Source: Candidatus Lustribacter sp. (GTDB lineage: Bacteria; Vulcanimicrobiota; Vulcanimicrobiia; Vulcanimicrobiales; Vulcanimicrobiaceae). Taken from it: a DNA stretch of 64,000 bases. Shown in pieces: positions 29,790-43,967 of the stretch. Location of the stretch: positions 2,176,001 through 2,240,000 of the forward strand of contig OZ255842.1 of NCBI GenBank assembly GCA_965277805.1, written 5' to 3'. The notes beneath the pieces are model-generated. The model was given only the letters and a program-made list of their open reading frames with translations, did no database searches and was not told the DNA's origin. Numbering within the stretch: the first letter of the stretch is position 1; each line of letters opens with the position of its first letter. The position numbers and the translations under genes were made by a program.

Positions 29790-30629
29790 ATGAACTCCGC
29801 TGATCCGGCCGCGCGTCGCAAAGAGCTGGGGATGTTTTTGCGCTCGCGGCGCCAAGCGATTGCACCCGAGGCTGCCGGGCTACGGCGAGGCGCGCGCCGC
29901 ATCGCGCGTGGCTTGCGTCGCGAGGAAGTGGCCGGCCTCGCGAACATTGGGGTCGTTTGGTATACCTGGCTCGAGCAGGGGCGCCCCGTGCGACCCTCTT
30001 CCGAAACGCTCACGCGGATTGCTCGCGTGCTGCGGCTCTCCCCGGAGGAATCGGGCTATGTCTTTAGCTTGGCCGAAAGGCAAATCGTACCATGGGGCGA
30101 GCTCGTAACGGCGGTGTCAGGCGACATCAAGGCGATGCTCAATGCGTTCACCGGCAGCGCGTTCGCGGTCAACGCGCGTATGGATCATCTTGCCTGGAAC
30201 CGGCAAACGGCGGCCCTCTACGAATTCGGCGACGGCACTGATTGGAAAGCCAACAATCACATTTGGCGCATGTTCAAGGACCCGGTCCTACGCCGCATCG
30301 TGCGTAACTGGGACGAGATGTTCCACGGTCCAGTCGCAATCTTTCGCTCGTTGTATGCCCATCATGGTGCAGACGCCCGCATCGACGAACTCCTTGACGC
30401 GCTTGCCGATTCGCCCGAGTTCACGCGCGCGTGGTCTGAAAAAACGGTCGGCCGCGGGCCGGCTATTGAGCTCTGCTTCGAAACGGCCGCCGGGCCGATC
30501 GCGGTGCGGTCGATGACCTTAGAGCCGCCCGCACTTCCAGGGGTCGTGTTGTTTCTGCAAACGCCGCTCGATGACAAAAGCCACGCCGCCCTCCAGCACT
30601 TAGCCAAGCGAACCGGATTGCACTCATGA
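29790..30629 (+). CDS. XRE/MmyB family transcriptional regulator
   Basis: LGMFLRSRR, GLRREEVAGLA, WYTWLEQGR and a PAS-like ligand domain. Confidence 0.92.
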   Translation: MNSADPAARRKELGMFLRSRRQAIAPEAAGLRRGARRIARGLRREEVAGLANIGVVWYTWLEQGRPVRPSSETLTRIARVLRLSPEESGYVFSLAERQIVPWGELVTAVSGDIKAMLNAFTGSAFAVNARMDHLAWNRQTAALYEFGDGTDWKANNHIWRMFKDPVLRRIVRNWDEMFHGPVAIFRSLYAHHGADARIDELLDALADSPEFTRAWSEKTVGRGPAIELCFETAAGPIAVRSMTLEPPALPGVVLFLQTPLDDKSHAALQHLAKRTGLHS

Positions 30630-31864: not shown

Positions 31865-33075
31865 GCATCTGCCTGATGAAAATGCTCTTGGGTACCATTA
31901 TGGCCAAGTGGCTTACGCGCCTCGTGGCAACGGTATTGCTGATCTCGCTTGCGCTCGTGCCGAACGTGGCGCGCGCCGAAGACCCCTACGAGATCTATGT
32001 CGTGCTCCCGCTCACCGGTTTTGCCGCGTTCCTCGGTGCGGGCGTAGCGACCACGCTGGGCGTCGTCCAGGAAATCACGAACCAGCACGGCGGGATTCAC
32101 GGCCGCCCGGTCAAGTTCGTCATCGAGGACGACCAATCGTCACCGCAGGTCACGCTTCAGCTAACGCAAGCGATTGCGGCGAAACACGTTCCGGCAATGT
32201 TAGGCTCGGCGGTATCGGCGATGTGCCAGGCTCAGCTTCCCGCGATCAAAGATGGCCCGCTGACCTGGTGCATGTCACCGGTGGTCCGGCCACCGGCCGG
32301 CAGCTTCATGTTCACGGTTCTGCAAACGACCGACGACTACATCGACGTATGCCTGCGCTACGCTGAAGCGCGTGGTTGGCACAAACTTGCCGTTATCACG
32401 ACCACGGATGCATCGGGCCAAGACTTCGACGCAACACTCGATCGCGTGATGGCGAAGCCGGAACACCGCGGCGAGTCCATCGTTTCGCGCGATCACTACA
32501 ACATCTCCGATATCAGCGTTGCAGCGCAGGTTGCACACATCAAGAGCTCGGGCGCCGACGCGATGTTCGGCTGGTCGGCCGGAACGTCGTTCAGCACGCT
32601 GTTGCATGCCGACGTCGACGCCGGTGTGGATCTGCCGATGTTTACGAGCGCGGCAAATCTGGTGACGGCACAAATGAAGACGCTCAGCTCGATCGCCCCG
32701 ACCGCACTCTACATTCCGGGCACGGCCGCCTACGCGCCGAATCTCCTGCGCGACGGCCCGCAAAAGCAGGCCGTTCTCGAATACATCAACGCGATGCGCG
32801 CCCGGAACTTGCCGATCGACCAAACCACCTTAAACGGGTGGGACGAACCAACGATCATCATCAACGCCCTGCGCAAGTTCGGCACAAACGCCACAGCCGA
32901 GCAGCTCCGCTCCTATTTGGCCGCTTACAAAGGCCCGGGCATCGTTGGAAACTATGACTTTCCGCAATACCCGCAACGCGGCTTGAACGCCTCGAGCGTG
33001 CTCGTCGTTCGGTGGGACCAAGCCCACCAAACATGGACCGGCGCGAGTCAGTTCGGCGGTACGCCGATCAAGTAG
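31861..33075 (+). CDS. Branched-chain-type solute-binding protein, orphan
   Basis: GGIHGRPV, DDQSSPQV; start may be ATG 31900. Confidence 0.87.
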   Translation: MSICLMKMLLGTIMAKWLTRLVATVLLISLALVPNVARAEDPYEIYVVLPLTGFAAFLGAGVATTLGVVQEITNQHGGIHGRPVKFVIEDDQSSPQVTLQLTQAIAAKHVPAMLGSAVSAMCQAQLPAIKDGPLTWCMSPVVRPPAGSFMFTVLQTTDDYIDVCLRYAEARGWHKLAVITTTDASGQDFDATLDRVMAKPEHRGESIVSRDHYNISDISVAAQVAHIKSSGADAMFGWSAGTSFSTLLHADVDAGVDLPMFTSAANLVTAQMKTLSSIAPTALYIPGTAAYAPNLLRDGPQKQAVLEYINAMRARNLPIDQTTLNGWDEPTIIINALRKFGTNATAEQLRSYLAAYKGPGIVGNYDFPQYPQRGLNASSVLVVRWDQAHQTWTGASQFGGTPIK

Positions 33076-34336
33076 CCGCGGCCGTGTGCAGCACGGCGCT
33101 CGGATGCTCGTCCTTCTTCAAACGGTGCGCGCGCACGGTGAGGCCGGCGACGGGATCTTCCAACGGCGTTCGCTGCGCCATCAACGGATCGCGCCCGGCA
33201 GCGACGTCGGCGATCGCCTTCAGCATCTGGCGGCGCATCACGATCACCGGTTCGTCGGTTGTGCCGAGGCGTTCCGTCGAACGATCGTAGATCGGCCCTT
33301 GCGTTTCGATCGCGAACCGGTCGTGATCCTGAAAGTTCGGTCCCATCCCGATAAACGTGCTGCTGCGCATCTCGCTGCGGTTCTGCAGATAGCGGTTCGT
33401 GGCGTTGCGGCGGCCCTCGTATTTCTCATCGACCTCACCCTTGATGGTCCGATCGCAGTATGCGTGGTCGAGCGGTCCGTTCTGTCGATGCACGATGACG
33501 TACTTGTAGTGATGCGTATCGTCGATCGGCACGTGCCAATGTGCCTGATAACCTTCGTTAGCCACCGGCTTGCGCAGCGCCGGGTCGATGAGCGGAATGC
33601 CGTCGAACATCGAACCGTTGGGCATGATGAAGTTGGATATGCGCACGTACACTTCGTCGTCGCCGGCTCGACGAGAAGCATACGCACGTAGGCCGAACGC
33701 CGTTTCTTCGACGGTCAGCTTGGGCGCAACGTCGCCGCCCATAATGATGCCGGCATCGACGAACTGTTGCGACGTGTCGTTGAAGTGGTGCAGAAATGAA
33801 AGGTGCTGCGGGTCGATATTGCCTTCGTTGCCCTGCAGGTAGTTACACGCTTGCCACAGCTTCGTCGCCCACACCTGATCCGGCGGCGCGCTCAGGAACG
33901 GAAAACGCGGCACGGGCGGCGGCTCGTCGGGCCCCATGTATGCGAAGATCAACCCGTTGCTTTCGTGCAGCGGATATGCGGTGTGCCGAACGCGGTCTTT
34001 GAACGTGCTCCCGGCCGTTTCACCCGGCTGCTCGAGACAGCGGCCGTCGCGCGCCATCACCCAGCCGTGATAGAGGCACCGCAGGCCGCCCGCCTCGATC
34101 CGCCCGTAGCTCAGGTCAACGCCGCGGTGCGGGCACTTCAAACCCAAAAGCCCCGGCAGTCCATACTCGTCGCGAAAGAGCACCAGATGTTCACTGAGGA
34201 TCTGCACGGGCTTGGGTGTCCCGGGCTGAGCTTCTTCCGATAAAGCAACTGGCTGCCAATACCGCCGCAGCATGTTGCCGCCAGGCGTACCGGGCGAGGT
34301 TTGCGTGAGCAGATCGTTTTGGGCTTTCGTCAGCAC
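33068..34336 (-). CDS. Rieske oxygenase alpha subunit (phthalate 4,5-dioxygenase family)
   Basis: CPHRG...CLYHGW, EGNIDPQHLSFLH; paralog of 19360-20661. Confidence 0.92.
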   Translation of the reverse strand: MLTKAQNDLLTQTSPGTPGGNMLRRYWQPVALSEEAQPGTPKPVQILSEHLVLFRDEYGLPGLLGLKCPHRGVDLSYGRIEAGGLRCLYHGWVMARDGRCLEQPGETAGSTFKDRVRHTAYPLHESNGLIFAYMGPDEPPPVPRFPFLSAPPDQVWATKLWQACNYLQGNEGNIDPQHLSFLHHFNDTSQQFVDAGIIMGGDVAPKLTVEETAFGLRAYASRRAGDDEVYVRISNFIMPNGSMFDGIPLIDPALRKPVANEGYQAHWHVPIDDTHHYKYVIVHRQNGPLDHAYCDRTIKGEVDEKYEGRRNATNRYLQNRSEMRSSTFIGMGPNFQDHDRFAIETQGPIYDRSTERLGTTDEPVIVMRRQMLKAIADVAAGRDPLMAQRTPLEDPVAGLTVRAHRLKKDEHPSAVLHTAAAT

Positions 34337-34396
34337 ACCACGGAATTGTCAGTGGCATTTGCCACACCCTCCAGCGATCCGGCGCGACGGGGCGGC

Positions 34397-34741
34397 CTAA
34401 CCAATAGCAGCCGTCCCCGCCATGACGCGCAGCACGTGCGTCTTCTCATGGAGGTCCGCTGGGTCGCCGCCGGCCGACCAGCCGAGCGCGCGACGATAGC
34501 TGCCCAAGTCGCCGCGTTCGGCAAGTTGTTGCTCGCTGACCTCGACGTGCCGGTGCGCCTCGGGCGAGACGAACAGCGCGTCAACCGGGCAGTAGGCTTC
34601 ACACAGGAAGCAGGTCTGACAGTCGTCCTGCCGCGTGATGACCGGTGCCGCATCATCGCGCGCATCGAACACGTTGGTCGGGCAAACCTTCACGCAGATG
34701 TTGCACGAAATGCAACGCGATGCGGAAACGAGTTCGATCAT
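34397..34741 (-). CDS. 2x[4Fe-4S] ferredoxin (AsfB-like)
   Basis: CISCNICVKVCP and CQTCFLCEAYCP. Confidence 0.9.
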   Translation of the reverse strand: MIELVSASRCISCNICVKVCPTNVFDARDDAAPVITRQDDCQTCFLCEAYCPVDALFVSPEAHRHVEVSEQQLAERGDLGSYRRALGWSAGGDPADLHEKTHVLRVMAGTAAIG

Positions 34742-36336
34742 CAGGCGCTCACGAGATCTCGGACGGCCGCTCGTGGCACCGGCTGTTCGTAGCGCAACGC
34801 GATCGTATCGACGCCCGAGAGGATCTGATGGTGTTGCTGCAGCGGATCGATCTGCGGGAAGTCGGTGCGCCTGTGCATGCCGCGGCTCTCGGTGCGCGCG
34901 AGCGCGCTCGTATACGCCCAGCGCGCCGTTGCCGCAAGTGCGGCCGCTTCACGGGAGCGCTGCACCTCGCGCGCGCCGCCAACAACTTCCGCGCTTTGCG
35001 GCATCCCTGATGCCCATAGCCCATCCAGCACCGCGAGCGACGAACGCAGTCCCGCATCGGTGCGGAACATGTTTTTCTCGAGCGGCAGCATCTCGTTCTT
35101 CACCCTGGCAATCGCTGCGTCGGACTCGGTGATTTTCCACGTACCGGCGCCGGTGAGGCGTCGCGTCTTGCGCGACGCTCCAAGGCGCAGCGCAAAGGCC
35201 GCAGCGCCTTCGCCGGCCCACGAACCCGAGGACATCGCCCACGCGGCATTGTGACTTCCGCCGCCGGTAAAACCGCCGCAGATGCGTTCGCGCGTCGCCG
35301 CATCGCCGGCTGCATACAGACCCGGTACTCGCGATGCGCAGGTTTCATCCGTGATGCGGATGCCGCCCGTGCCGCGTACCGTTCCTTCGAGTACGAGCGT
35401 CACGGGGAAGCGTTCGTTGAACGGGTCGATGCCGCTGCGGTCGAACGGCAAGAAAAAGTTCGGTTGCGCCAACCGCAGGAAAGCCTGAACCTCGGGTCGC
35501 TCCTTGGCTTTGATCAGTTGCGCGTAGACGGGACCGTTGATCAGCGTCCGGCCGATCGTGGCAGCGGAGTGATGACCGTCCTTGACCGCCTTGATGTCTT
35601 CGCCCGCTTCGTTCGTGAACACGGCCCAACTGTAATGCGCGGTTTTCGTAACGGAGCCGAACACGGTCGAGACGGCGTATTGGCTCGAGAACTCCATACC
35701 GGAAAGCTCCGCTCCCGCTTCGCCGGCGAAGAGATAACCGTCGCCGGTGTTATTGTTCGTGCCGAGCGCCTTGCTCAAGAACGCGCATCCGCCGGTCGCG
35801 ATCACCACGGCACCCGAACGCACGGTCCAGTCACGTTCTTCCTGTTGCTGCACGCCGCGCGCGCCGGCCACGTTGCCGCTGCCGTCGACCAGCAGCTCGA
35901 GTGCAGGGCTATGATCGAGAATCTTCACTCCCGCGCGTGAGATGACTTTGCGCATCAAGCGCATGTACTCCGGACCCTGCAAGTTGCGTCGCACCGTCTC
36001 GCCGTTTTCGCGCGGGAACGGATAGCCCCACGCCTCGACCAGCTCCATGTTCGACCAGGTGCGATCGAGCACGCGATCCATCCAATCGTGGTCGGCGAGA
36101 TAACCGCCGAGCGCTTCGCGTTGCGCCTTGGCCTTTTCGCGATCTTCCGTCGTCGGCGGAATCACCCACACGCCGGTACCGCTCGGCGCGGTCGCGCCGC
36201 TCGAGCCGCAATAGCCCTTATCGACGAGCACGACCGAGGCGCCGGCTTGCGCCGCGTTCCATGCAGCCCACGTTCCGGCGGGTCCGCCCCCGATCACGAG
36301 AACGTCGGCATCGAGTTCCAAGCCGTCCTTAAACAT
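34741..36336 (-). CDS. FAD-dependent oxidoreductase, SdhA/AprA superfamily (AsfA-like)
   Basis: DVLVIGGGPAG, IATGG, NTGDG, GLYAAGD, ARTESRGMHRRTDFP; GAGGT RBS before ATG 36336. Confidence 0.88.
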   Translation of the reverse strand: MFKDGLELDADVLVIGGGPAGTWAAWNAAQAGASVVLVDKGYCGSSGATAPSGTGVWVIPPTTEDREKAKAQREALGGYLADHDWMDRVLDRTWSNMELVEAWGYPFPRENGETVRRNLQGPEYMRLMRKVISRAGVKILDHSPALELLVDGSGNVAGARGVQQQEERDWTVRSGAVVIATGGCAFLSKALGTNNNTGDGYLFAGEAGAELSGMEFSSQYAVSTVFGSVTKTAHYSWAVFTNEAGEDIKAVKDGHHSAATIGRTLINGPVYAQLIKAKERPEVQAFLRLAQPNFFLPFDRSGIDPFNERFPVTLVLEGTVRGTGGIRITDETCASRVPGLYAAGDAATRERICGGFTGGGSHNAAWAMSSGSWAGEGAAAFALRLGASRKTRRLTGAGTWKITESDAAIARVKNEMLPLEKNMFRTDAGLRSSLAVLDGLWASGMPQSAEVVGGAREVQRSREAAALAATARWAYTSALARTESRGMHRRTDFPQIDPLQQHHQILSGVDTIALRYEQPVPRAAVRDLVSA

Positions 36337-36360: not shown

Positions 36361-36397
36361 AAAAAGAAAAAAGCCCCCCGCCGGTTGGCGGAGGGCT
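36361..36397 (-). terminator. Intrinsic terminator (attenuator) upstream of the AsfA-like gene
   Basis: Minus strand AGCCCTCCGCC-AACC-GGCGGGGGGCT followed by TTTTTCTTTTT. Confidence 0.88.
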
Positions 36398-36427
36398 CGC
36401 ATTCGCACGAACAAACGGTCGAGCGCG

Positions 36428-36493
36428 CTAAACCAGCATCACACCACTACGGCGGACGGTCTCGGCGCAACAACAACGGTTCACGAACGACAT
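36428..36493 (-). CDS. Cys-rich leader peptide MSFVNRCCCAETVRRSGVMLV
   Basis: Own translation; TGT TGT TGC run; ATG 7 nt after -10 TACAGT; terminator follows. Confidence 0.78.
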   Translation of the reverse strand: MSFVNRCCCAETVRRSGVMLV

Positions 36494-36500
36494 CGACGGC

Positions 36501-36566
36501 ACTGTAACACACCCTTCAAGACGCTGTCAAACCGGTTTGACAGCATTCTACACGGCGTGTTATGGT
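36501..36566. promoter_or_regulatory. Back-to-back sigma70-type promoters sharing a 22-bp palindrome
   Basis: GCTGTCAAACCGGTTTGACAGC (36523-36544); plus strand TTGACA 36537-42, 18 nt, TGT-TATGGT 36561-66; minus strand TTGACA 36530-25, 18 nt, TGT-TACAGT 36506-01. Confidence 0.8.
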
Positions 36567-36572
36567 GCGGCC

Positions 36573-36647
36573 ATGTCGGCTCGCCGTTTCGTCTGCACGT
36601 GTCCCTGTTGTCTTGCTGGAAACGAGCGAGCCTTGTTTGTGATGTAG
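36573..36647 (+). CDS. Cys-rich leader peptide MSARRFVCTCPCCLAGNERALFVM
   Basis: Own translation; 4 Cys in 6 codons; ATG 6 nt after -10 TATGGT; alternative hairpins and terminator follow. Confidence 0.82.
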   Translation: MSARRFVCTCPCCLAGNERALFVM

Positions 36648-36671
36648 GCGTTTCTGCCGCCGCGTCCGTGC

Positions 36672-36705
36672 AAGCCCTCGCTCGAGCGAGGGCTTTTTTA
36701 TTTTT
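36672..36705 (+). terminator. Intrinsic terminator (attenuator) upstream of the sulfonate ABC operon
   Basis: AAGCCCTCGC-TCGA-GCGAGGGC followed by TTTTTTATTTTT. Confidence 0.9.
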
Positions 36706-36740: not shown

Positions 36741-37802
36741 ATGAATCATCACCTTACGCGCCGCGCGAGCCTCGCTGCAATAGGCGCGCTCGTCGCAACC
36801 GGAACCCGCGCATTTGGCGCCGAGGCGACGCCGCCCGTCATCCGCCTCGGCGGGGTCGGCTACGGTTACGGCAAGCCGTTTGGAGAGCACGCCATCGCCG
36901 TCGCGCAAGCCCAACGCTTCGTCGAAGCCGAGACGAAGTTTGCCGTGCGCGTCGAGTATACGTATTTCGACCACACCGGACCGGCCATCAACGAAGCGCT
37001 TGCAGCCGGCCAGCTCGACTTCGCAAGTTATGGCGAACTGCCGCAAATCATCGGCAAGGCGAACGGGCTCCAAACGCGGATCGTCGCCAACGGCGGCATC
37101 AGCAACATCTATGTGGGCGTTCGCAACGGCGTCAAGGCGAACACGATCGCCGATCTCAAAGGACTGCGCGTCACGCTCCAGCGCGGGACCATCTTACATC
37201 AAGCCTTGGATCGGCTGCTCGCCGAAGCCGGCTTGTCCGAAAAAGACATTCAACTCTACGACCTGCCCACGGCCGACCAGTTGACGGCGCTCAGCAGCGG
37301 CCAGGCCGACGCGAGCGTGGGGACCGCATCGCTCCTCACGCTGCGCGATCAGGGCCTGGTGCGCGTCATCTACTCGACGGCAGGCAAGACCACGCCGGAC
37401 GGCATCAACGCCGTTGCCGTCACTGAAGACTTCTCGAGCAAATATCCGGGCGCGACCGGCGCCGTCGTGCGCGCGTTCGTGAAGGCGGCGAATTGGACGG
37501 CCCAGCCGCACAATCGCGACGCCGTGCTGGATATCTGGGCTAAGTCGGGCCCGCCGCGTAAGGTCATCGCCGAAGATCTGGCGGGCCCGCTCAAAGACAC
37601 GGACATTCCGCTCATCGACGAATTGTTCGTGGCCGGTCTCAAAGTCGGCATCGACTTCTCCGTTCGCAACAAGTTGATCCGGCAGGCCTTCGACGTCGAT
37701 GCTTGGATCGACCGGCGCTACGTTGATGCCGCGCTTCGCGATCTCAATCTGGTGAGCTACTGGCAACCGCGCCACGCCCCGCCGTCGCTCGCCAAAGACT
37801 AA
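36741..37802 (+). CDS. Sulfonate ABC solute-binding protein (SsuA/AsfC-like, Tat)
   Basis: LTRRASL signal; GPAINEALAAGQLDFASYGELP, ADLKG motifs. Confidence 0.88.
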   Translation: MNHHLTRRASLAAIGALVATGTRAFGAEATPPVIRLGGVGYGYGKPFGEHAIAVAQAQRFVEAETKFAVRVEYTYFDHTGPAINEALAAGQLDFASYGELPQIIGKANGLQTRIVANGGISNIYVGVRNGVKANTIADLKGLRVTLQRGTILHQALDRLLAEAGLSEKDIQLYDLPTADQLTALSSGQADASVGTASLLTLRDQGLVRVIYSTAGKTTPDGINAVAVTEDFSSKYPGATGAVVRAFVKAANWTAQPHNRDAVLDIWAKSGPPRKVIAEDLAGPLKDTDIPLIDELFVAGLKVGIDFSVRNKLIRQAFDVDAWIDRRYVDAALRDLNLVSYWQPRHAPPSLAKD

Positions 37803-37807
37803 GCCCG

Positions 37808-38647
37808 ATGATACGCGCGATCCCGTTCGTCGACATTGCGAACGCACCGGCCCTCGGACGGCCTGCGCGCGCCGCCGCGCAGCGCGGGCGAAGCCGGTGG
37901 CGCTCGGCCGCTCTCGGCGCGATCGTACCGCTTGCGATACTTGCGCTGTGGTCGCTCACGGTTGCATTGCACGCGATGCGATCGCAAATTTTGCCGAGCC
38001 CGCCGGCGGTGTTGGCCGCAGCAGCCGATTTGCTCCGCAGCGGCGATCTCGCCGCAGCACTCGGCGTGAGCCTCGGACGGGTCGCTCTCGGCCTCGCGAT
38101 CGGAAGCGCCTTCGGCCTCGTTGCGGGCGCTGCGCTTGGGCGCTCGCCGGCGCTCGACGCCTACTTCGGCCCGGCTCTGCGCGCGATCTGCCAGATTCCG
38201 ACGATCGCGTGGCTGCCGGTGTTCATGCTGATCTTCGGTATCGGCGAAGAACTCAAAGTCGCGATCATCGCGAAGGCTGCCTTCCTACCGATGCTGCTCA
38301 ATGCGTTCGCAGGCGTGCGCACCGCGCCGGCGCGCTACCACGAAGTCGCGAACGTGCTGGAATTCAGCCCGCTGCAGCGACTGCGTTTCGTGACGATTCC
38401 ATCCGCGCTGCCGATGATCGTCTCGGGTTTACGCCTGGCATTGAGCAACGCGTGGCACGTGCTCATCGTCGTTGAGATGCTTGCATCCGCATCCGGCATC
38501 GGCCATCTCATGGCGTGGAGCCGCACGCTTTTCCAACTCGACGTCGTTTTCGTCACCGTGGTCGCGATCGGTGCGACCGGGTGGCTCATGGATACCGCGA
38601 TGCGAGCGGCCGAACGCCGTTTGAGCCCCTGGAGCACGTCCGCATGA
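37808..38647 (+). CDS. Sulfonate ABC permease (SsuC-like)
   Basis: ILPSP, IPSALPMIVSGLRLA, SGIGHL motifs. Confidence 0.88.
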   Translation: MIRAIPFVDIANAPALGRPARAAAQRGRSRWRSAALGAIVPLAILALWSLTVALHAMRSQILPSPPAVLAAAADLLRSGDLAAALGVSLGRVALGLAIGSAFGLVAGAALGRSPALDAYFGPALRAICQIPTIAWLPVFMLIFGIGEELKVAIIAKAAFLPMLLNAFAGVRTAPARYHEVANVLEFSPLQRLRFVTIPSALPMIVSGLRLALSNAWHVLIVVEMLASASGIGHLMAWSRTLFQLDVVFVTVVAIGATGWLMDTAMRAAERRLSPWSTSA

Positions 38648-39429
38648 CGCGGCCGCTCGCTCGCCGTCGCATCGATCTTCGCGGCGCCGTCGTTCCTCTG
38701 GTGCTCGCAGTGGGCTGGATCGTCGCCTCGGTGTCGGGCCACTGGGATCCGCACATGCTCGTCCCGCCCGGTCAGCTCGCGCGCGGCTTTATCGCGACGG
38801 CGCAAAACGGCGAGTTTTGGACTGCGGCGGGTGCGAGTCTGCTCCGTCTCGTGACCGGTTGGCTGGCGGGATCGGTCGCCGGCGTTGCGCTCGGCCTCAT
38901 CGCCGGCTGCTCCGCGCCGGCTGAGCAAATAATCGCGCCATCACTCAACGCCGTGCGTCAAGTCGCGCTGTTCGCGTGGATTCCATTGCTCACCGCGTGG
39001 TTCGGCGACGGCAACTCGGCCGAAGTGTTCTTGATCGCGCTCGCGGCGTTTTTTCCGGCCGCACTCAACACCGAAACCGGCTGCCGCAACGCTCCGATCG
39101 CCTTACGCGAAGTGGGCCGCGTCTTGGAATTCGGCCCGCGGGAAATACTTCGCCGCATCATCATTCCGTCAGCCATGCCCTCGATCGCCTCGGGATTGCA
39201 GATCGCCCTGACGTCCGCCTGGATCGGCACGATCGGCGCCGAGTATCTCATCGACCAAGGCAACGGCCTTGGCGTGTTTCTTTCTTCTGCCCGAATGGAT
39301 AATCGCATGGACGTCGTCCTCTTCTGCATCGTTGCCTTAGGCTGCATCGGGTACGGCCTGAGCACCGCGCTCCGTCTCGCCTTTGCGTCCGCTGCGCCGG
39401 CAACGGCACTGGCAGCCCTCGATGACTGA
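38644..39429 (+). CDS. Sulfonate ABC permease (SsuC-like), second
   Basis: RQVALFAWIPLL, IIPSAMPSIASGL; ATGA start. Confidence 0.88.
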   Translation: MTRPLARRRIDLRGAVVPLVLAVGWIVASVSGHWDPHMLVPPGQLARGFIATAQNGEFWTAAGASLLRLVTGWLAGSVAGVALGLIAGCSAPAEQIIAPSLNAVRQVALFAWIPLLTAWFGDGNSAEVFLIALAAFFPAALNTETGCRNAPIALREVGRVLEFGPREILRRIIIPSAMPSIASGLQIALTSAWIGTIGAEYLIDQGNGLGVFLSSARMDNRMDVVLFCIVALGCIGYGLSTALRLAFASAAPATALAALDD

Positions 39430-40183
39430 GCGCGGCCGCCTCGACATTCTCAATGTCGACAAGTCGTTCTACGTCGATGGTGCGGAGGTACGGGCATTGG
39501 CCGGCGTTTCGCTCACGGTGAACGCCGGTGAATTCGTCACCATCGTCGGCCCGAGCGGTTGCGGCAAGTCAACGCTGCTGCGACTGGTGGCCGGTCTCGA
39601 CCGCGCCGGCAACGGCACGGTTTCGTTCGACGGTGAGCCCGTCGTCGAACCGAGCCTGCGCCGCGGCGTCGTCTTTCAAGACCACCGCCTCTTCCCATGG
39701 CTGAACGTCGAAGCCAACGTCGCCACCGGCCTGCTCAAAGCCGGCGGATTCGACGCCGAAAAACGCACAACCGCTTCGCGGCTCATCGCGCTCGTGGGCT
39801 TGAGCGGTTTCGAAAAAGCGTTTCCGCATCAGCTCTCGGGCGGCATGGCACAGCGCGCGGCGATCGCGCGCAGCCTCGCCGCGAAACCCGACATTCTGCT
39901 CCTCGACGAACCCCTCGGTGCGCTGGATTCGCTCACGCGCGGCCGCATGCAGGCCGAGCTGCTGCGCGTCTGGCAGCACGAGAAGACGACGATGCTCATG
40001 GTGACGCACGACGTGGGCGAGGCTGTCTATCTCTCCGATCGCATCGTCGTGATGGATCGCGATCCGGGCCGAATCCGCGAAATTATCGAGGTCCCGTTCC
40101 CCAAACCCCGCACCCGCCTCGACCCCGCCGTCGCCGCCTTCACCGAACGCATCATCGCCCGCCTAGAAACGGCGCCGGCATGA
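39422..40183 (+). CDS. Sulfonate ABC ATP-binding protein (SsuB-like)
   Basis: GPSGCGKS, LSGGMAQR, LLLDEPLGALD. Confidence 0.92.
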   Translation: MTERGRLDILNVDKSFYVDGAEVRALAGVSLTVNAGEFVTIVGPSGCGKSTLLRLVAGLDRAGNGTVSFDGEPVVEPSLRRGVVFQDHRLFPWLNVEANVATGLLKAGGFDAEKRTTASRLIALVGLSGFEKAFPHQLSGGMAQRAAIARSLAAKPDILLLDEPLGALDSLTRGRMQAELLRVWQHEKTTMLMVTHDVGEAVYLSDRIVVMDRDPGRIREIIEVPFPKPRTRLDPAVAAFTERIIARLETAPA

Positions 40184-40249: not shown

Positions 40250-41845
40250 CTAGTATCCGAGCGCAATCCCATCCTTACGCGGATCGCTGCCACCAACGAG
40301 CACCCCACGCTCGCGATCGATAAAGATCGCCTGCCCACCCCCATGCGGCGGATCAACCTCAACCACATGATGCCCGCGCGCCGCTAACCCCTCGCGCGTT
40401 TTCACCGGAATGCCGCGCTCGACATACACATCGCCGAACATCGGCATCACGCGCGGGAGATCCAGCGCCGCCTGCACATCCAGCCCGTGATCGAACATGT
40501 TGGTCAACAGCAAACTCTGCCCGACCGGCTGAAAATGCCCGCCCATCACACCGAAGGGCATCACGGCTTGTCCACCGTGCGTCAGCATTCCCGGGATGAT
40601 CGTATGCATCGGCCGTTTTCCCGGCGCGAGCGCATTCGGATGCCCACGCCGAAGCTCGAACGACTGCCCGCGATTGTGTAACAGCACGCCGCTGCGCTCG
40701 GCATAAATCGTCGAGCCGAAACTCTCGAAGAGCGAGTTGATGAAACTGCATGCGTTCCCGGCTTCATCAACCACCGTGAGATACACCGTATCGCGATGCA
40801 CCGGCAGCCGCGACTCGCCCGGCTCCGGCAACTCCGCCAGCGCCCGATCGTCATCGATCAGCCCGCGCAGCGCACTGAGATACTCGCTCGACAACAGCCG
40901 GTCTACCGGGACCTCAACTGCCGTCGGATCGGCCAGAAACGCATCGCGATCGCGGAACGCCAACCGCGCAGCTTCAATATGACGATGCAGTCGCAGCGCT
41001 CCGAGCGGCCCATCCGCCTTTCCTAGCCCATCTAAGATTCCGAGAATCATCAACGCAATGAGTCCTGAACCGTTCGGCGGGCACTCCCAAACCTCAAAAC
41101 CCTTCCACGCCAACCGAATCGGATCGACAAACTCGGCACCCGTCATACCTGCTGCAAAATCGTCCTCGGTGTGCACGCCGCCGCGGGCCCGGAGCGTCCG
41201 CACGATATCCGCCGCGACCTCGCCGCGATAGAATGCCTCAGCACCGTTCGCCGCAATCGCGCGCAGCGTTTGCGCAAGCGCCGGATTGGACATGCGATCC
41301 CCCGCGCGCGGCGCCTGACCGCGCGGCAGATACGCCGCAAGTCCGGCGCTCCGAAGCCGCGCCGCGCTGAGCCGCCAATCGTAGGCCAGGCGCGGCTGCA
41401 CCACATAGCCTTCGACGGCAAACGCAATCGCCGGCCGCAGTAGCTCATCGAGCCCGCGGCTCCCGAAGCGCGCGCTCAGCGTTACCCACGCCGATATCGC
41501 ACCGGGAATCGTGACCGAGTCCGGGCCGTTCGGGTCGATGAACTGATCGCCGCGTGCTCGAATCGCGTCGAGGTCGATCGCGGCCGGCGCGCGTCCCGAC
41601 CCGTTCAACGCATACACGCGCCCACTGCCCGCCGGCGCGTAGAGACAAAACACGTCCCCGCCGATGCCGGTCGACTGCGGCTCGACTACCGCCAGCACCG
41701 CCGCCGCCGTAATCGCCGCATCCATTGCGTTTCCGCCGCATCGCAACATGTCGACCGCTGCCGACGTTGCTTGCGGCATCGAGGTCGCCGCCATGCCGTG
41801 GTCCGCGTACATCGGGCCCCGGCCGGGCGCATGAAAATCGCGCAT
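40250..41845 (-). CDS. ggt: Gamma-glutamyltransferase family protein
   Basis: GGNAMDAA, STGIGGD, DTVYLTVVD nucleophile Thr, KRPMHTIIP, GSDPRKDG. Confidence 0.9.
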   Translation of the reverse strand: MRDFHAPGRGPMYADHGMAATSMPQATSAAVDMLRCGGNAMDAAITAAAVLAVVEPQSTGIGGDVFCLYAPAGSGRVYALNGSGRAPAAIDLDAIRARGDQFIDPNGPDSVTIPGAISAWVTLSARFGSRGLDELLRPAIAFAVEGYVVQPRLAYDWRLSAARLRSAGLAAYLPRGQAPRAGDRMSNPALAQTLRAIAANGAEAFYRGEVAADIVRTLRARGGVHTEDDFAAGMTGAEFVDPIRLAWKGFEVWECPPNGSGLIALMILGILDGLGKADGPLGALRLHRHIEAARLAFRDRDAFLADPTAVEVPVDRLLSSEYLSALRGLIDDDRALAELPEPGESRLPVHRDTVYLTVVDEAGNACSFINSLFESFGSTIYAERSGVLLHNRGQSFELRRGHPNALAPGKRPMHTIIPGMLTHGGQAVMPFGVMGGHFQPVGQSLLLTNMFDHGLDVQAALDLPRVMPMFGDVYVERGIPVKTREGLAARGHHVVEVDPPHGGGQAIFIDRERGVLVGGSDPRKDGIALGY

Positions 41846-41848
41846 CGC

Positions 41849-42802
41849 TTACCTGACGAGCGCCGTCTTACTGATCATCGATCGCGCATCGATGTGACTC
41901 GAAAGCGATTTCTGCGCGGTCGCCGCATCGAGAAACGGCTGCATCATCCGTACATCGAACACGTCGCCGTACGCGGCACGCCGCATGCCGGCAACGGTGT
42001 CGAGCGGGATGCCCGCATACTGCGCGAGGATCGCGCCGGACTTCGGCCAGTTCGACTGCGTATTTGCCCACAGTGCGGCCTCGTGCATCGCGGCGACGAA
42101 CTGCGCGGCCAGTGCCGGATGATCGGCGATCCAGTCTTCGGTCGCAAACCACGCGGTGAGCTCGACCTCTTTGCCGACCGCGCTATACGGATACCCGATG
42201 ATGCGATTGTCCGCCAGCGAAGGCGTGAGGCTCGGTTCGTTGATCGTTGCCGCGGCGACCGTGCCGCGTCCGACCGCTGCCGCCATACTCGGTTGCGGCA
42301 GCTCGATGAACTTCACCGAATCCGGATCGGCCCCGTTGTCGCGCAGCCACTTGTAGGTCGCCACTTTCGCCGGCCCCGCGATCGAAGGCTCGCCGATCGT
42401 CTTGCCGTTGAGATCCTTGGCCGTTTTGATCGTCGACGACTTCGCGGCGATCAACGCAGTCGCCGGCGCGGCAGCGCGATACAGGTACGACGGCGCAATG
42501 AGGGTGAGTGGAACGCCGTGCAGCCGCGCCTCAGCGATGTCGATCACGCCGCCCTCACCGATGTCGACCGATTTCCCGGTAACCGCCGCGGCGATTGCGG
42601 GTCCGCTGCCGTGCACGGCGATGAACTTCGCCTCGATGCCGTGTTTCTTGAGGAAGCCCATGTCTTCGGCGAAGTACGCCAGGGCATTGGAATCCTGGCC
42701 GGGCGTCGCGATGTTGATGACGGTGAGCGGTGGCGGAGATTGCGCTGCGCCCACACTCATCGAACCGAGCACGGCCAGCAGTGCAAATGCTATCGCCTTC
42801 AC
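41849..42802 (-). CDS. NitT/TauT solute-binding protein, orphan
   Basis: Signal peptide; GFLKKHGI, AKDLNGKT. Confidence 0.88.
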   Translation of the reverse strand: MKAIAFALLAVLGSMSVGAAQSPPPLTVINIATPGQDSNALAYFAEDMGFLKKHGIEAKFIAVHGSGPAIAAAVTGKSVDIGEGGVIDIAEARLHGVPLTLIAPSYLYRAAAPATALIAAKSSTIKTAKDLNGKTIGEPSIAGPAKVATYKWLRDNGADPDSVKFIELPQPSMAAAVGRGTVAAATINEPSLTPSLADNRIIGYPYSAVGKEVELTAWFATEDWIADHPALAAQFVAAMHEAALWANTQSNWPKSGAILAQYAGIPLDTVAGMRRAAYGDVFDVRMMQPFLDAATAQKSLSSHIDARSMISKTALVR

Positions 42803-43875
42803 TCGACCAAGACTCCTCGGCGCAGTGCCGGAATGACGCGTTCGCCGAACAGCTTCACCGATGAGATGTACAGCTCGCGGGGCATCGCATCGAATTGGTG
42901 GTTGACGAGCAGCAGGTCGTAGCCTACGCGTTCATGCTGCGCGCGGATGGCGTCCGCAACCGTTTCCGGGCTGCCGAGGAACGCCAAGCCCTCGTCGAGC
43001 CAAAAGTCGACCGACTGCGCGGTCTCGTAGTAGATGCGCGCGAGTTCGCGCGTATCGGGCGTGATGTCACCGAGCATGTTTTTGGCCCGGTTCACGGCAT
43101 CCGGCCCTTGGATGCCGCGCAACATATATTGCTCCGCCTGCTTATGCGCTAACGCATCGGTCTCTGCAACGTGCACGTGGCGCACGAGTGCCGCGCGGCG
43201 GCGCGGACCGGGATGCGCGTACTTCGCGAGCTCCTTGCGCCAGTGGGCGAACTTTTCAGCAGCGATCGTTTCCGCTTCGAAGATCTGGCCGACGTTGAAA
43301 TTCATCTTCGCCGCGTATTCATACGAGCCGATGCTGTGCGCGCCCATCCAAACCGGGGGATGCGGTTGCTGGTAGGGATGCGGCTGCGGCGTCGCACCCG
43401 TGAACGTGTAGTATTCGCCCGCGTGATTGACGATACGATCGGTCCACGCTTTGAGCAACACGTCGATCGCCTCGTAGCCGTGCGCACGGCGATCTTTGAA
43501 GTCAACGTTCCACGGTTCGAACTCCCGGCTGCGCGTTCCGAAACCGAGCCCGACGTCGAGACGGCCCTGCGAGAGGTGATCGACGGTCGCCGTGTCCTGC
43601 GCGAGCCGGATCGGATGGTGCAGCGGCACCTGAAAGATCATCGTGCCGATGCGAATCGTCGTCGTCGCGAGCGCGAGCGCCGCGAGATACGGCGCGGGGG
43701 CGGTGATGCACGGAAATCCCGGGTTCTGATGCTCGATGAAGAAAAATGACTGATAGCCGCAGCGCTCGGCGAGTTGCGCATCATCGAGATGCTGCCGGTA
43801 AGCTGCGGCGGTCTCAACCGGCGAGGTGTCCGGGATGGCGGTCGTGTCGAAAAGGCCGAATTCAAGTTCGTTCAT
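42799..43875 (-). CDS. LLM-class flavin-dependent monooxygenase
   Basis: EFGLFD, EHQ, HPIRLAQDTATVDHLSQGR, PYQQPHPPVW. Confidence 0.9.
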   Translation of the reverse strand: MNELEFGLFDTTAIPDTSPVETAAAYRQHLDDAQLAERCGYQSFFFIEHQNPGFPCITAPAPYLAALALATTTIRIGTMIFQVPLHHPIRLAQDTATVDHLSQGRLDVGLGFGTRSREFEPWNVDFKDRRAHGYEAIDVLLKAWTDRIVNHAGEYYTFTGATPQPHPYQQPHPPVWMGAHSIGSYEYAAKMNFNVGQIFEAETIAAEKFAHWRKELAKYAHPGPRRRAALVRHVHVAETDALAHKQAEQYMLRGIQGPDAVNRAKNMLGDITPDTRELARIYYETAQSVDFWLDEGLAFLGSPETVADAIRAQHERVGYDLLLVNHQFDAMPRELYISSVKLFGERVIPALRRGVLVE

Positions 43876-43967
43876 CGTGGTAACGCCACCAGTGCGACGC
43901 CAAAACCGGAGCACCCTGGGGGTTCGGAGGCGCCTATCGTGAATAGGCTCTCACGGAGGCACCGAGC

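Follow-up and report, generated by a model that had tools for sequence, protein, structure and literature searches.

How could two sulfur-scavenging operons that diverge from one short intergenic region be switched by the same signal? This question is raised by positions 36361-36705 of a 64,000-nucleotide stretch of Candidatus Lustribacter sp. DNA (contig OZ255842.1, positions 2,176,001 to 2,240,000; hereafter the window). A gap of 404 bp separates the start codon of a flavoprotein gene (36336, minus strand) from that of a substrate-binding protein (SBP) gene (36741, plus strand), and within it lie two divergent, nearly symmetric units. In each unit a promoter is followed by a short open reading frame (sORF) with cysteine (Cys) codons, by an intrinsic terminator and finally by the operon. 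Judged from its sequence, this cassette is likely to be a divergent pair of Cys-sensing, ribosome-mediated transcription attenuators acting on probably leaderless mRNAs.

An earlier sequence-only reading had described a near-symmetric module of terminator, Cys-rich upstream ORF, promoter palindrome, Cys-rich upstream ORF and terminator at this locus, and all five elements are in place (Table 1). A consensus scan identifies both promoters as near-consensus sigma-70-type sites with a TG extension, each with 10 of 12 positions matched; two such sites are observed, compared with 0.2 +/- 0.4 in 50 shuffles. The -10 hexamer lies only 6 nt (plus leader) and 7 nt (minus leader) ahead of the ATG of the sORF, which leaves no room for a Shine-Dalgarno sequence. 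The transcripts are thus predicted to be leaderless or nearly so, and from this promoter-ATG geometry both sORF mRNAs are probably leaderless. The two sORF start codons are 80 nt apart. Behind each sORF stands a hairpin followed by a run of 9-10 T, ending 24 nt before the start codon of the flavoprotein gene on one side and 35 nt before that of the SBP gene on the other. The GAGG preceding the flavoprotein gene is outside the hairpin, i.e. the ribosome-binding site is not within the terminator. Both leaders fold more stably than their shuffled counterparts (z of -4.5 and -3.8), none of 200 shuffles being equally stable.

The two sORFs are strongly enriched in Cys codons, which make up 4 of 24 codons in the plus leader and 3 of 21 in the minus leader, compared with 0.9% of the codons in 4327 predicted ORFs. 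Consecutive Cys codons are present in both (codons 12-13 and 7-9, respectively). The choice of codon differs as well: TGT represents 15.5% of the Cys codons in the same 4327 ORFs and 5 of the 7 in the two leaders. In a larger set of 22 Cys leaders TGT accounts for 50 of 74 Cys codons, in sequences that are related and not independent and to which non-coding composition may contribute.

In the mechanism that we propose, in which the start points of transcription, the translation of leaderless mRNAs, ribosome stalling and the switching are all predictions, two strong and probably constitutive promoters would fire in opposite directions, and each transcript would begin at or beside the AUG of its sORF. 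With charged tRNA-Cys plentiful, the ribosome would reach the stop codon and cover a segment complementary to the 5' arm of the terminator; the terminator could then form, and transcription would end before the operon. With cysteine, and hence sulfur, in short supply, the ribosome would stall on the Cys codons, most of which are the rare TGT. The downstream segment would be left free to pair with the terminator 5' arm, the terminator would fail, and RNA polymerase would read through into the transporter operon on the plus strand and into the flavoprotein/ferredoxin/oxygenase operon on the minus strand. The earlier proposal that Cys shortage stalls ribosomes and so opens both operons is supported, at the level of sequence, by the anatomy of the cassette, by its conservation in congeners and by a family-wide comparison of leaders.

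To what extent could such an arrangement occur elsewhere in the same genome? The genome of the window (G000) comprises 5.53 Mb, and its probable genes were called by third-position GC, which is a crude caller. Cys-rich sORFs, defined by at least 3 Cys within 6 codons, amount to 925 entries genome-wide, 215 of which fall in sequence left non-coding by the gene caller. A filter for at most 30% overlap with predicted coding sequence and a strong terminator within 150 nt is passed by five entries, corresponding to three distinct sORFs: the pair in the window and one unrelated 50-codon ORF, with 1.8 kb between it and the next gene. A strict search that requires a -35 and a -10 hexamer, a start codon 5-9 nt further on, a short ORF and a terminator all together leaves four matches genome-wide, namely the window pair, an Ile/Leu/Val leader at C1:476753 and one other. 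No further Cys leader with promoter and terminator was found in G000, even with the criterion relaxed to two consecutive Cys codons. The combination of promoter, Cys-rich sORF and terminator is unique to this pair in the 5.5-Mb genome. Four sequencing runs that were examined consist of contigs with DNA-like depth; three of them contain the stretch and one does not. Searching Rfam at a permissive threshold returned no family at gathering score (best 23.2 bits, compared with a gathering score of 55), and the sub-threshold similarities, which are to small RNAs, all fall on the terminators. The Ile/Leu/Val-rich sORF (G000:C1:476753-476830) has 25 codons, a GTG start, a TTGAC..TAnnnT promoter and a terminator, and is, from its sequence, probably an attenuator of this design for branched-chain amino acids.

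A search for the flavoprotein gene found it in three of seven congeners; a further 53 genomes from the family, order and class did not yield it. G004 carries an orthologous divergent sORF pair with 5 and 3 Cys codons and terminators, and in addition a third Cys-rich leader (5 Cys) before a paralogue. G006 carries a divergent pair with 4 and 3 Cys codons, again with terminators. In G007 (L093, 1250-1700) the order binding protein-terminator-sORF-promoter / promoter-sORF-terminator-flavoprotein is kept. Across the orthologous loci the layout is thus retained at 3 of 3, Cys-richness at 2 of 3 and the palindrome at 1 of 3. The leader peptides have diverged in the relatives except at the Cys positions, and the downstream binding proteins share 88% and 80% identity with that of the window. 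In the plus leader type a nucleotide block before the stop codon is invariant in four sequences, and the reading frame differs between G000 and G006. As the block is invariant but read in different frames, it is conserved as RNA and not as peptide. This block is the segment that is able to pair with the 5' arm of the terminator.

We then modelled the switch in both leaders. Segments 1 (nt 6-18) and 2 (nt 47-60) of the plus leader are paired with each other in the free RNA. When the A site of the ribosome is placed at codons 4-8, the terminator is lost from the full-length minimum free energy fold, and segment 2 takes the 5' arm as its partner instead. In models of the transcript that stop short of the 3' arm, the antiterminator (nt 51-64 paired to the 5' arm) is obtained whichever of the four Cys codons the ribosome occupies, and its energy corresponds to a z of -3.4 to -5.5 relative to shuffled spacers. 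A ribosome that has reached the stop codon covers most of segment 2, its footprint beginning at nt 58. The antiterminator pairing is kept in 96% of cells across four relatives. On the minus side, an interrupted helix of 12 pairs with the terminator 5' arm is possible for the conserved block that surrounds the stop codon, and this helix is kept in 94% of cells across three sequences. The sequence-only reading had placed an attenuator switch on both sides of the cassette. For the plus leader the antiterminator is well supported by these models, while that of the minus leader is weakly suggested, and this half of the mechanism is postulated by analogy. Among the 22 Cys leaders, 20 have a detectable terminator. 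In each of these 20, with the ribosome on a Cys codon and before synthesis of the terminator 3' arm, the 5' arm is predicted to find a partner around the stop codon of the sORF; shuffles often match the number of paired bases, as GC-rich RNA would lead one to expect.

Further evidence comes from the family as a whole. Covariance models of the two leader types (E<=0.01) find matches in 44 and 42 of 101 family genomes, counts that include G000 and the unpublished genomes G072, G035 and G026. We examined 58 of these loci, representing 56 distinct sites. The matches are not all Cys leaders; they belong to a general class composed of a strong promoter, an sORF located at the start of the transcript or close to it, and a terminator. 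Promoter-proximal sORFs with clustered Cys, or Cys and Met, codons are found at 15 of the 56 sites. Of these, 12 precede sulfur or Cys/Met genes, and the genes at the other three are without a Pfam match. The 12 comprise genes for PAPS reductase (cysH, two sites), sulfite reductase, a cysK-type PALP enzyme, a Cys/Met (metY-like) pyridoxal phosphate enzyme, homoserine dehydrogenase (two sites), TauE, SsuA-like binding proteins (two sites), a MetQ-like NlpA lipoprotein and a 1-Cys peroxiredoxin. Leaders rich in Ile/Leu/Val precede acetolactate-synthase-type enzymes at all eight sites tested (one of them, L131, from the unpublished G072), and aromatic-rich leaders precede a prephenate-dehydratase/DAHP-synthase (pheA-like) fusion at four sites. 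This agreement between the composition of the leader and the pathway encoded downstream is what attenuators predict.

The paired layout also recurs. In G088 (L141, 1500-1870) an aromatic leader before the prephenate-dehydratase/DAHP-synthase fusion stands back to back with a leader containing a Pro run before P5C reductase (proC), the two start codons being 83 nt apart. Together with the pair in the window, this makes the divergent arrangement a recurrent module in the family. The window pair stands out in that one and the same amino acid is read by its two halves. The sequence-only reading knew of no described case of such a pair; the novelty is smaller than it assumed, as G088 has a back-to-back pair and as Cys leader ORFs, some with and some without a terminator, have been published (10.1101/834739, PMC1262725, PMC8632094).

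Several results weigh against the proposed attenuation. With the A site on Cys codons 10, 12 or 13 the full-length fold of the plus leader keeps the terminator, so that the switch would need kinetic, co-transcriptional competition. In the full-length folds of the minus leader the terminator persists at each of the 22 ribosome positions, the antiterminator is not distinguished from shuffled spacers by its energy (z of -0.3 to -1.4), and 9-28 of 100 shuffles pair as many bases of the 5' arm. Covariation is nearly absent, with two-sided changes at 1 of 13 pairs in the plus type and 0 of 12 in the minus type. These alignments hold four (plus) and three (minus) similar sequences, the structure tested was derived from one of them, and the values are reached by 99-500 of 500 shuffles. 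A strict -35/-10 combination is placed 4-11 nt before the start codon in 6 of 27 family matches, compared with 57 of 8174 control start codons. As only 6 of 27 agree with this strict rule, leaderless starts are not shown for all members of the family; the low share arises because many -10 hexamers depart from TAnnnT or because position 1 of the model falls downstream of the true start. The orthologous sORFs of G007 contain no more than 1 and 2 Cys codons; the cassette there is either a decaying sensor or a sensor with changed specificity. Outside the lineage, inspection of 80 loci with homologous flavoproteins revealed no Cys-rich leader, and the element is thus not tied to the flavoprotein gene family. 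The check proposed earlier, a search of related genomes for Cys-rich upstream ORFs with terminators at asfA/ssuA homologues, gave such leaders in G004 and G006, but few Cys codons in G007 and no credible case at the 80 outside loci. The flavoprotein-side leader of G007 is rich in Ser (7 of 25 codons). The only formal match in an objective scan of the 80 loci, L062 from a Nocardia, looks like the 3' end of an ORF located upstream and was dismissed as spurious.

Could the cassette work at the level of initiation instead? A dimeric sulfur-responsive regulator bound to the central palindrome might govern both promoters, the leaders being minor or ordinary 5' untranslated regions. The shared promoter palindrome of the sequence-only reading is present and perfect over 22 bp, which is 10 bp longer than the two hexamers together, an 18-bp form is found in G004, and Pseudomonas sulfonate genes are under a LysR activator (PMC4267179). 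However, G006 keeps the cassette with a centre that is no palindrome, and G007 keeps it with 24 nt between the -35 hexamers, so that a dedicated operator is not supported. The palindrome is mostly two back-to-back -35 hexamers, is not conserved as such and is not supported as a separate regulatory site. In addition, near-consensus promoters with an extended -10 are expected where no activator is needed, and initiation control explains neither the Cys codons nor the terminators. The earlier statement that no CysB/SsuR-type regulator gene is adjacent stands in so far as no LysR-type gene is found among the annotated neighbours, which represent part of the surroundings, but an MmyB-type helix-turn-helix (HTH) gene lies 6 kb away. 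Taken together, we consider initiation control unlikely. Translational attenuation as in mycobacteria would be attractive as the only mechanism shown experimentally for polycysteine leaderless sORFs (10.1101/834739), but it is very unlikely here, given hairpins with runs of 9-10 T that end 24 and 35 nt before the start codons and a GAGG outside the hairpin of the flavoprotein leader.

The stable folds of the leaders, the short transcripts that termination would produce and the weak sub-threshold similarities to Rfam small RNAs, all of them driven by the terminators, could also be accommodated if the sORFs encoded functional Cys-rich micropeptides, or if the leaders were small RNAs or a riboswitch of an unknown kind, with Cys codons that are incidental to regulation. 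Against this, the peptides diverge except at the Cys positions next to a protein that is 80-88% identical, part of the plus leader is conserved across a frame change, no Rfam family reaches its threshold, and the family-wide fit of leader composition to pathway is what attenuators predict. We regard this group of explanations as highly improbable. GC-rich DNA is rich in hairpins and short ORFs, as the 215 non-coding Cys-rich entries illustrate, so that promoter-like, ORF-like and hairpin sequences might simply have come together by chance. The uniqueness of the combination in the genome and the conservation of layout (3 of 3) and Cys-richness (2 of 3) at the orthologous loci leave hardly any weight for this.

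Ribosome-mediated attenuation by the two leaders, which we prefer, has close parallels in known systems. Classical leader-peptide attenuators control trp, his, leu, thr, ilv and phe operons in Proteobacteria and trp and ilvB in Actinobacteria (PMC1262725, PMC2965389). As in these, the sORF is enriched in codons of the amino acid sensed, the structural genes lie behind an intrinsic terminator, and close to the stop codon of the sORF there is a segment able to pair with the terminator 5' arm. In contrast to these, cysteine would be sensed here, the sORF is probably located at the very 5' end of the mRNA without a Shine-Dalgarno sequence, the targets are scavenging genes (transporter and redox enzymes) and not a biosynthetic pathway, two units stand back to back, and the host is a diderm outside the Actinobacteria. 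The last point follows from the genome, which has no match to the WhiB family and contains an Omp85/BamA homologue.

The mycobacterial polycysteine leaderless sORFs ('Cys ribulon', Canestrari et al.) are proven cysteine sensors with a translational mechanism, in which a duplex hides the ribosome-binding site (10.1101/834739). As in the present cassette, sulfur/cysteine operons are preceded by short ORFs that contain consecutive Cys codons, leaderless in mycobacteria and probably so here, and several independent loci read one signal through the ribosome, as is predicted here. Mycobacterial Cys leaders are noted in PMC1262725 to have no terminators, whereas each leader here has a strong intrinsic terminator with the ribosome-binding site outside it; no sequence homology to the mycobacterial leaders is seen, and the taxon is a different one. 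A terminator is found in the uORFC-8-2 motif before cysS in Rhodobacterales, a predicted attenuator with tandem Cys codons (PMC8632094). In that paper the motif is found only before cysS, has two Cys codons (14-15) located inside a stem, forms a single unit, is not described as leaderless and is a prediction only. In the window the downstream genes encode a binding protein and a flavoprotein and not cysS.

With respect to the genes controlled, the locus resembles the asfRABC/ssu clusters of Pseudomonas and other soil bacteria, in which a reductase-type flavoprotein and a ferredoxin lie beside an SsuA-like binding protein and an ABC transporter. The asf cluster supplements ssu for arylsulfonate use and is expressed under sulfate limitation (PMC4267179, citing Vermeij et al. 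1999). There the LysR-type activator AsfR is in charge, whereas here control by the leaders is predicted and, as noted, no LysR-type gene was annotated nearby. The literature searched, which includes few subscription journals and no supplements, describes neither divergent attenuators in pairs nor Cys leaders that precede sulfonate/asf genes.

Leader-peptide attenuation as a mechanism and Cys-sensing leader ORFs as such are known, the latter from mycobacteria and Rhodobacterales; new here are the terminator-based leaderless form in this lineage, the organosulfur-scavenging targets and the divergent pairing. Taking the family-wide leaders together with the cassette, one may go further and read leaderless leader-peptide attenuators as a general amino-acid sensing system of this little-studied, mostly uncultured soil lineage. 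Such a system would cover at least Cys, Met, Ile/Leu/Val, aromatic amino acids, Pro and Thr and would have spread from genes of biosynthesis to nutrient-scavenging operons, with divergent pairs as a recurrent module that is free of transcription factors and with one short intergenic region and its compact promoter core placing two operons under ribosome control. We consider the case for and against this joint reading to be evenly balanced.

If the joint reading is true, the sulfur-starvation response of asf/ssu-type genes in this organism would be a regulon run by the ribosome and not by CysB or LysR-type proteins. Cys-sensing leader ORFs have been tested experimentally only in mycobacteria, where they act on translation, and the terminator-based version has only been predicted, before cysS. 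The cassette would show that this logic can also take the form of classical transcription attenuation when the mRNAs are leaderless, that it operates in a diderm lineage beyond the phyla in which leader peptides are textbook knowledge, and that it has been recruited to organosulfur scavenging, a task run by LysR-type activators in model bacteria. It would also constitute a compact natural design, with one 210-bp region co-regulating two operons by one metabolic signal. The leaders of the family offer many independent natural variants from which to learn what makes a leaderless attenuator work. Annotation would benefit too, because gene callers miss such sORFs and premature terminators.

Some further leaders were observed in the course of the family comparison. 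The fusion of prephenate dehydratase and DAHP synthase in one frame of about 500 amino acids occurs in several genera of the family (L141, L146, L149/L117, L150). Met-rich leaders with the same promoter/terminator design are seen in G100 (L111, 7 Met codons) and G024 (L102, 4 Met codons), and that of G024 precedes a Cys/Met pyridoxal phosphate enzyme. Reading by eye, we noted further cases within the genus: in G007 a Cys-cluster leader before an apparent PAPS-reductase gene, cysH (L152), and a Thr/Ile/Met-rich leader before an apparent homoserine dehydrogenase (L153), and in G005 an aromatic leader before an apparent prephenate dehydratase, as judged from its N-terminal sequence only (L154).

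Table 1. Coordinates of the cassette and of the two operons in the window (sORF, short open reading frame; nt numbers refer to the leader transcript)
Feature	Position	Strand	Description
Minus leader intrinsic terminator	36361..36398	-	12-bp GC-rich stem 36398-36371, T run to 36361
Candidate antiterminator segment, minus leader	36421..36445	-	transcript nt 49-73, around sORF stop codon; weakly suggested
Minus leader sORF	36428..36493	-	ATG start, 21 codons + stop, Cys codons 7-9 consecutive; probably leaderless
Minus leader promoter	36501..36530	-	-35 TTGACA 36530-36525, 18-nt spacer, TG-extended -10 TACAGT 36506-36501
Perfect 22-bp palindrome	36523..36544		encloses both -35 hexamers, 6 bp between them
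Plus leader promoter	36537..36566	+	-35 TTGACA 36537-36542, 18-nt spacer, TG-extended -10 TATGGT 36561-36566
Plus leader sORF	36573..36647	+	ATG start, 24 codons + stop, Cys codons 8, 10, 12, 13; probably leaderless
Segment 1, plus leader	36578..36590	+	transcript nt 6-18; predicted partner of segment 2 unless covered by the ribosome
Segment 2, plus leader	36619..36636	+	transcript nt 47-64; alternative predicted partners segment 1 or terminator 5' arm (antiterminator)
Plus leader intrinsic terminator	36672..36705	+	10-bp GC-rich stem 36672-36695, T run to 36705
Operon under plus leader	36741..40183	+	SBP, two permeases, ATPase
SsuA-family/NMT1 substrate-binding protein	36741-37802	+	family search
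Permease 1	37808-38647	+	in plus operon
Permease 2	about 38515-39429	+	in plus operon
ABC ATPase	39383-40183	+	in plus operon
Operon under minus leader	33068..36336	-	flavoprotein, ferredoxin, oxygenase
AsfA-like FAD flavoprotein, SdhA/FrdA/NadB superfamily	36336-34741	-	FAD_binding_2 + Succ_DH_flav_C
4Fe-4S ferredoxin, 114 aa	34741-34397	-	Fer4; start overlaps flavoprotein stop
Rieske/LigXa-type oxygenase	34336-33068	-	third gene of minus operon

Family searches confirmed the earlier assignment of the flanking genes as an AsfA/AsfB-like pair on one side and an SsuA/C/C/B-like ABC operon on the other (Table 1). Homologues of the flavoprotein at 45-58% identity are found in Variovorax, Rhodococcus, Pseudomonas, Paraburkholderia and others, and on the basis of this identity to homologues from genera known to carry asfA the protein is a putative AsfA. 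The gene content, with a reductase-type flavoprotein followed by a ferredoxin and an SsuA-like binding protein across the cassette, agrees with that of an asf cluster.

A second sulfur-type cluster is located at 40250-43914 of the window on the minus strand and encodes a luciferase-like (SsuD-type) monooxygenase, an NMT1/SsuA-like binding protein and a gamma-glutamyltransferase. Scans found no Cys leader before this cluster. Its proximity makes the neighbourhood a sulfur-scavenging island. The MmyB-like HTH regulator gene (29790-30629, plus strand) is followed by genes for two Peripla_BP_6 binding proteins and is convergent with the Rieske oxygenase gene. In two congeners the AsfA-like flavoprotein occurs in three paralogues each (L009/L010 in G006, L005/L011 in G004); an extra paralogue lies between the leader and the orthologue in both, and in G006 another one follows the binding protein, under the other leader.

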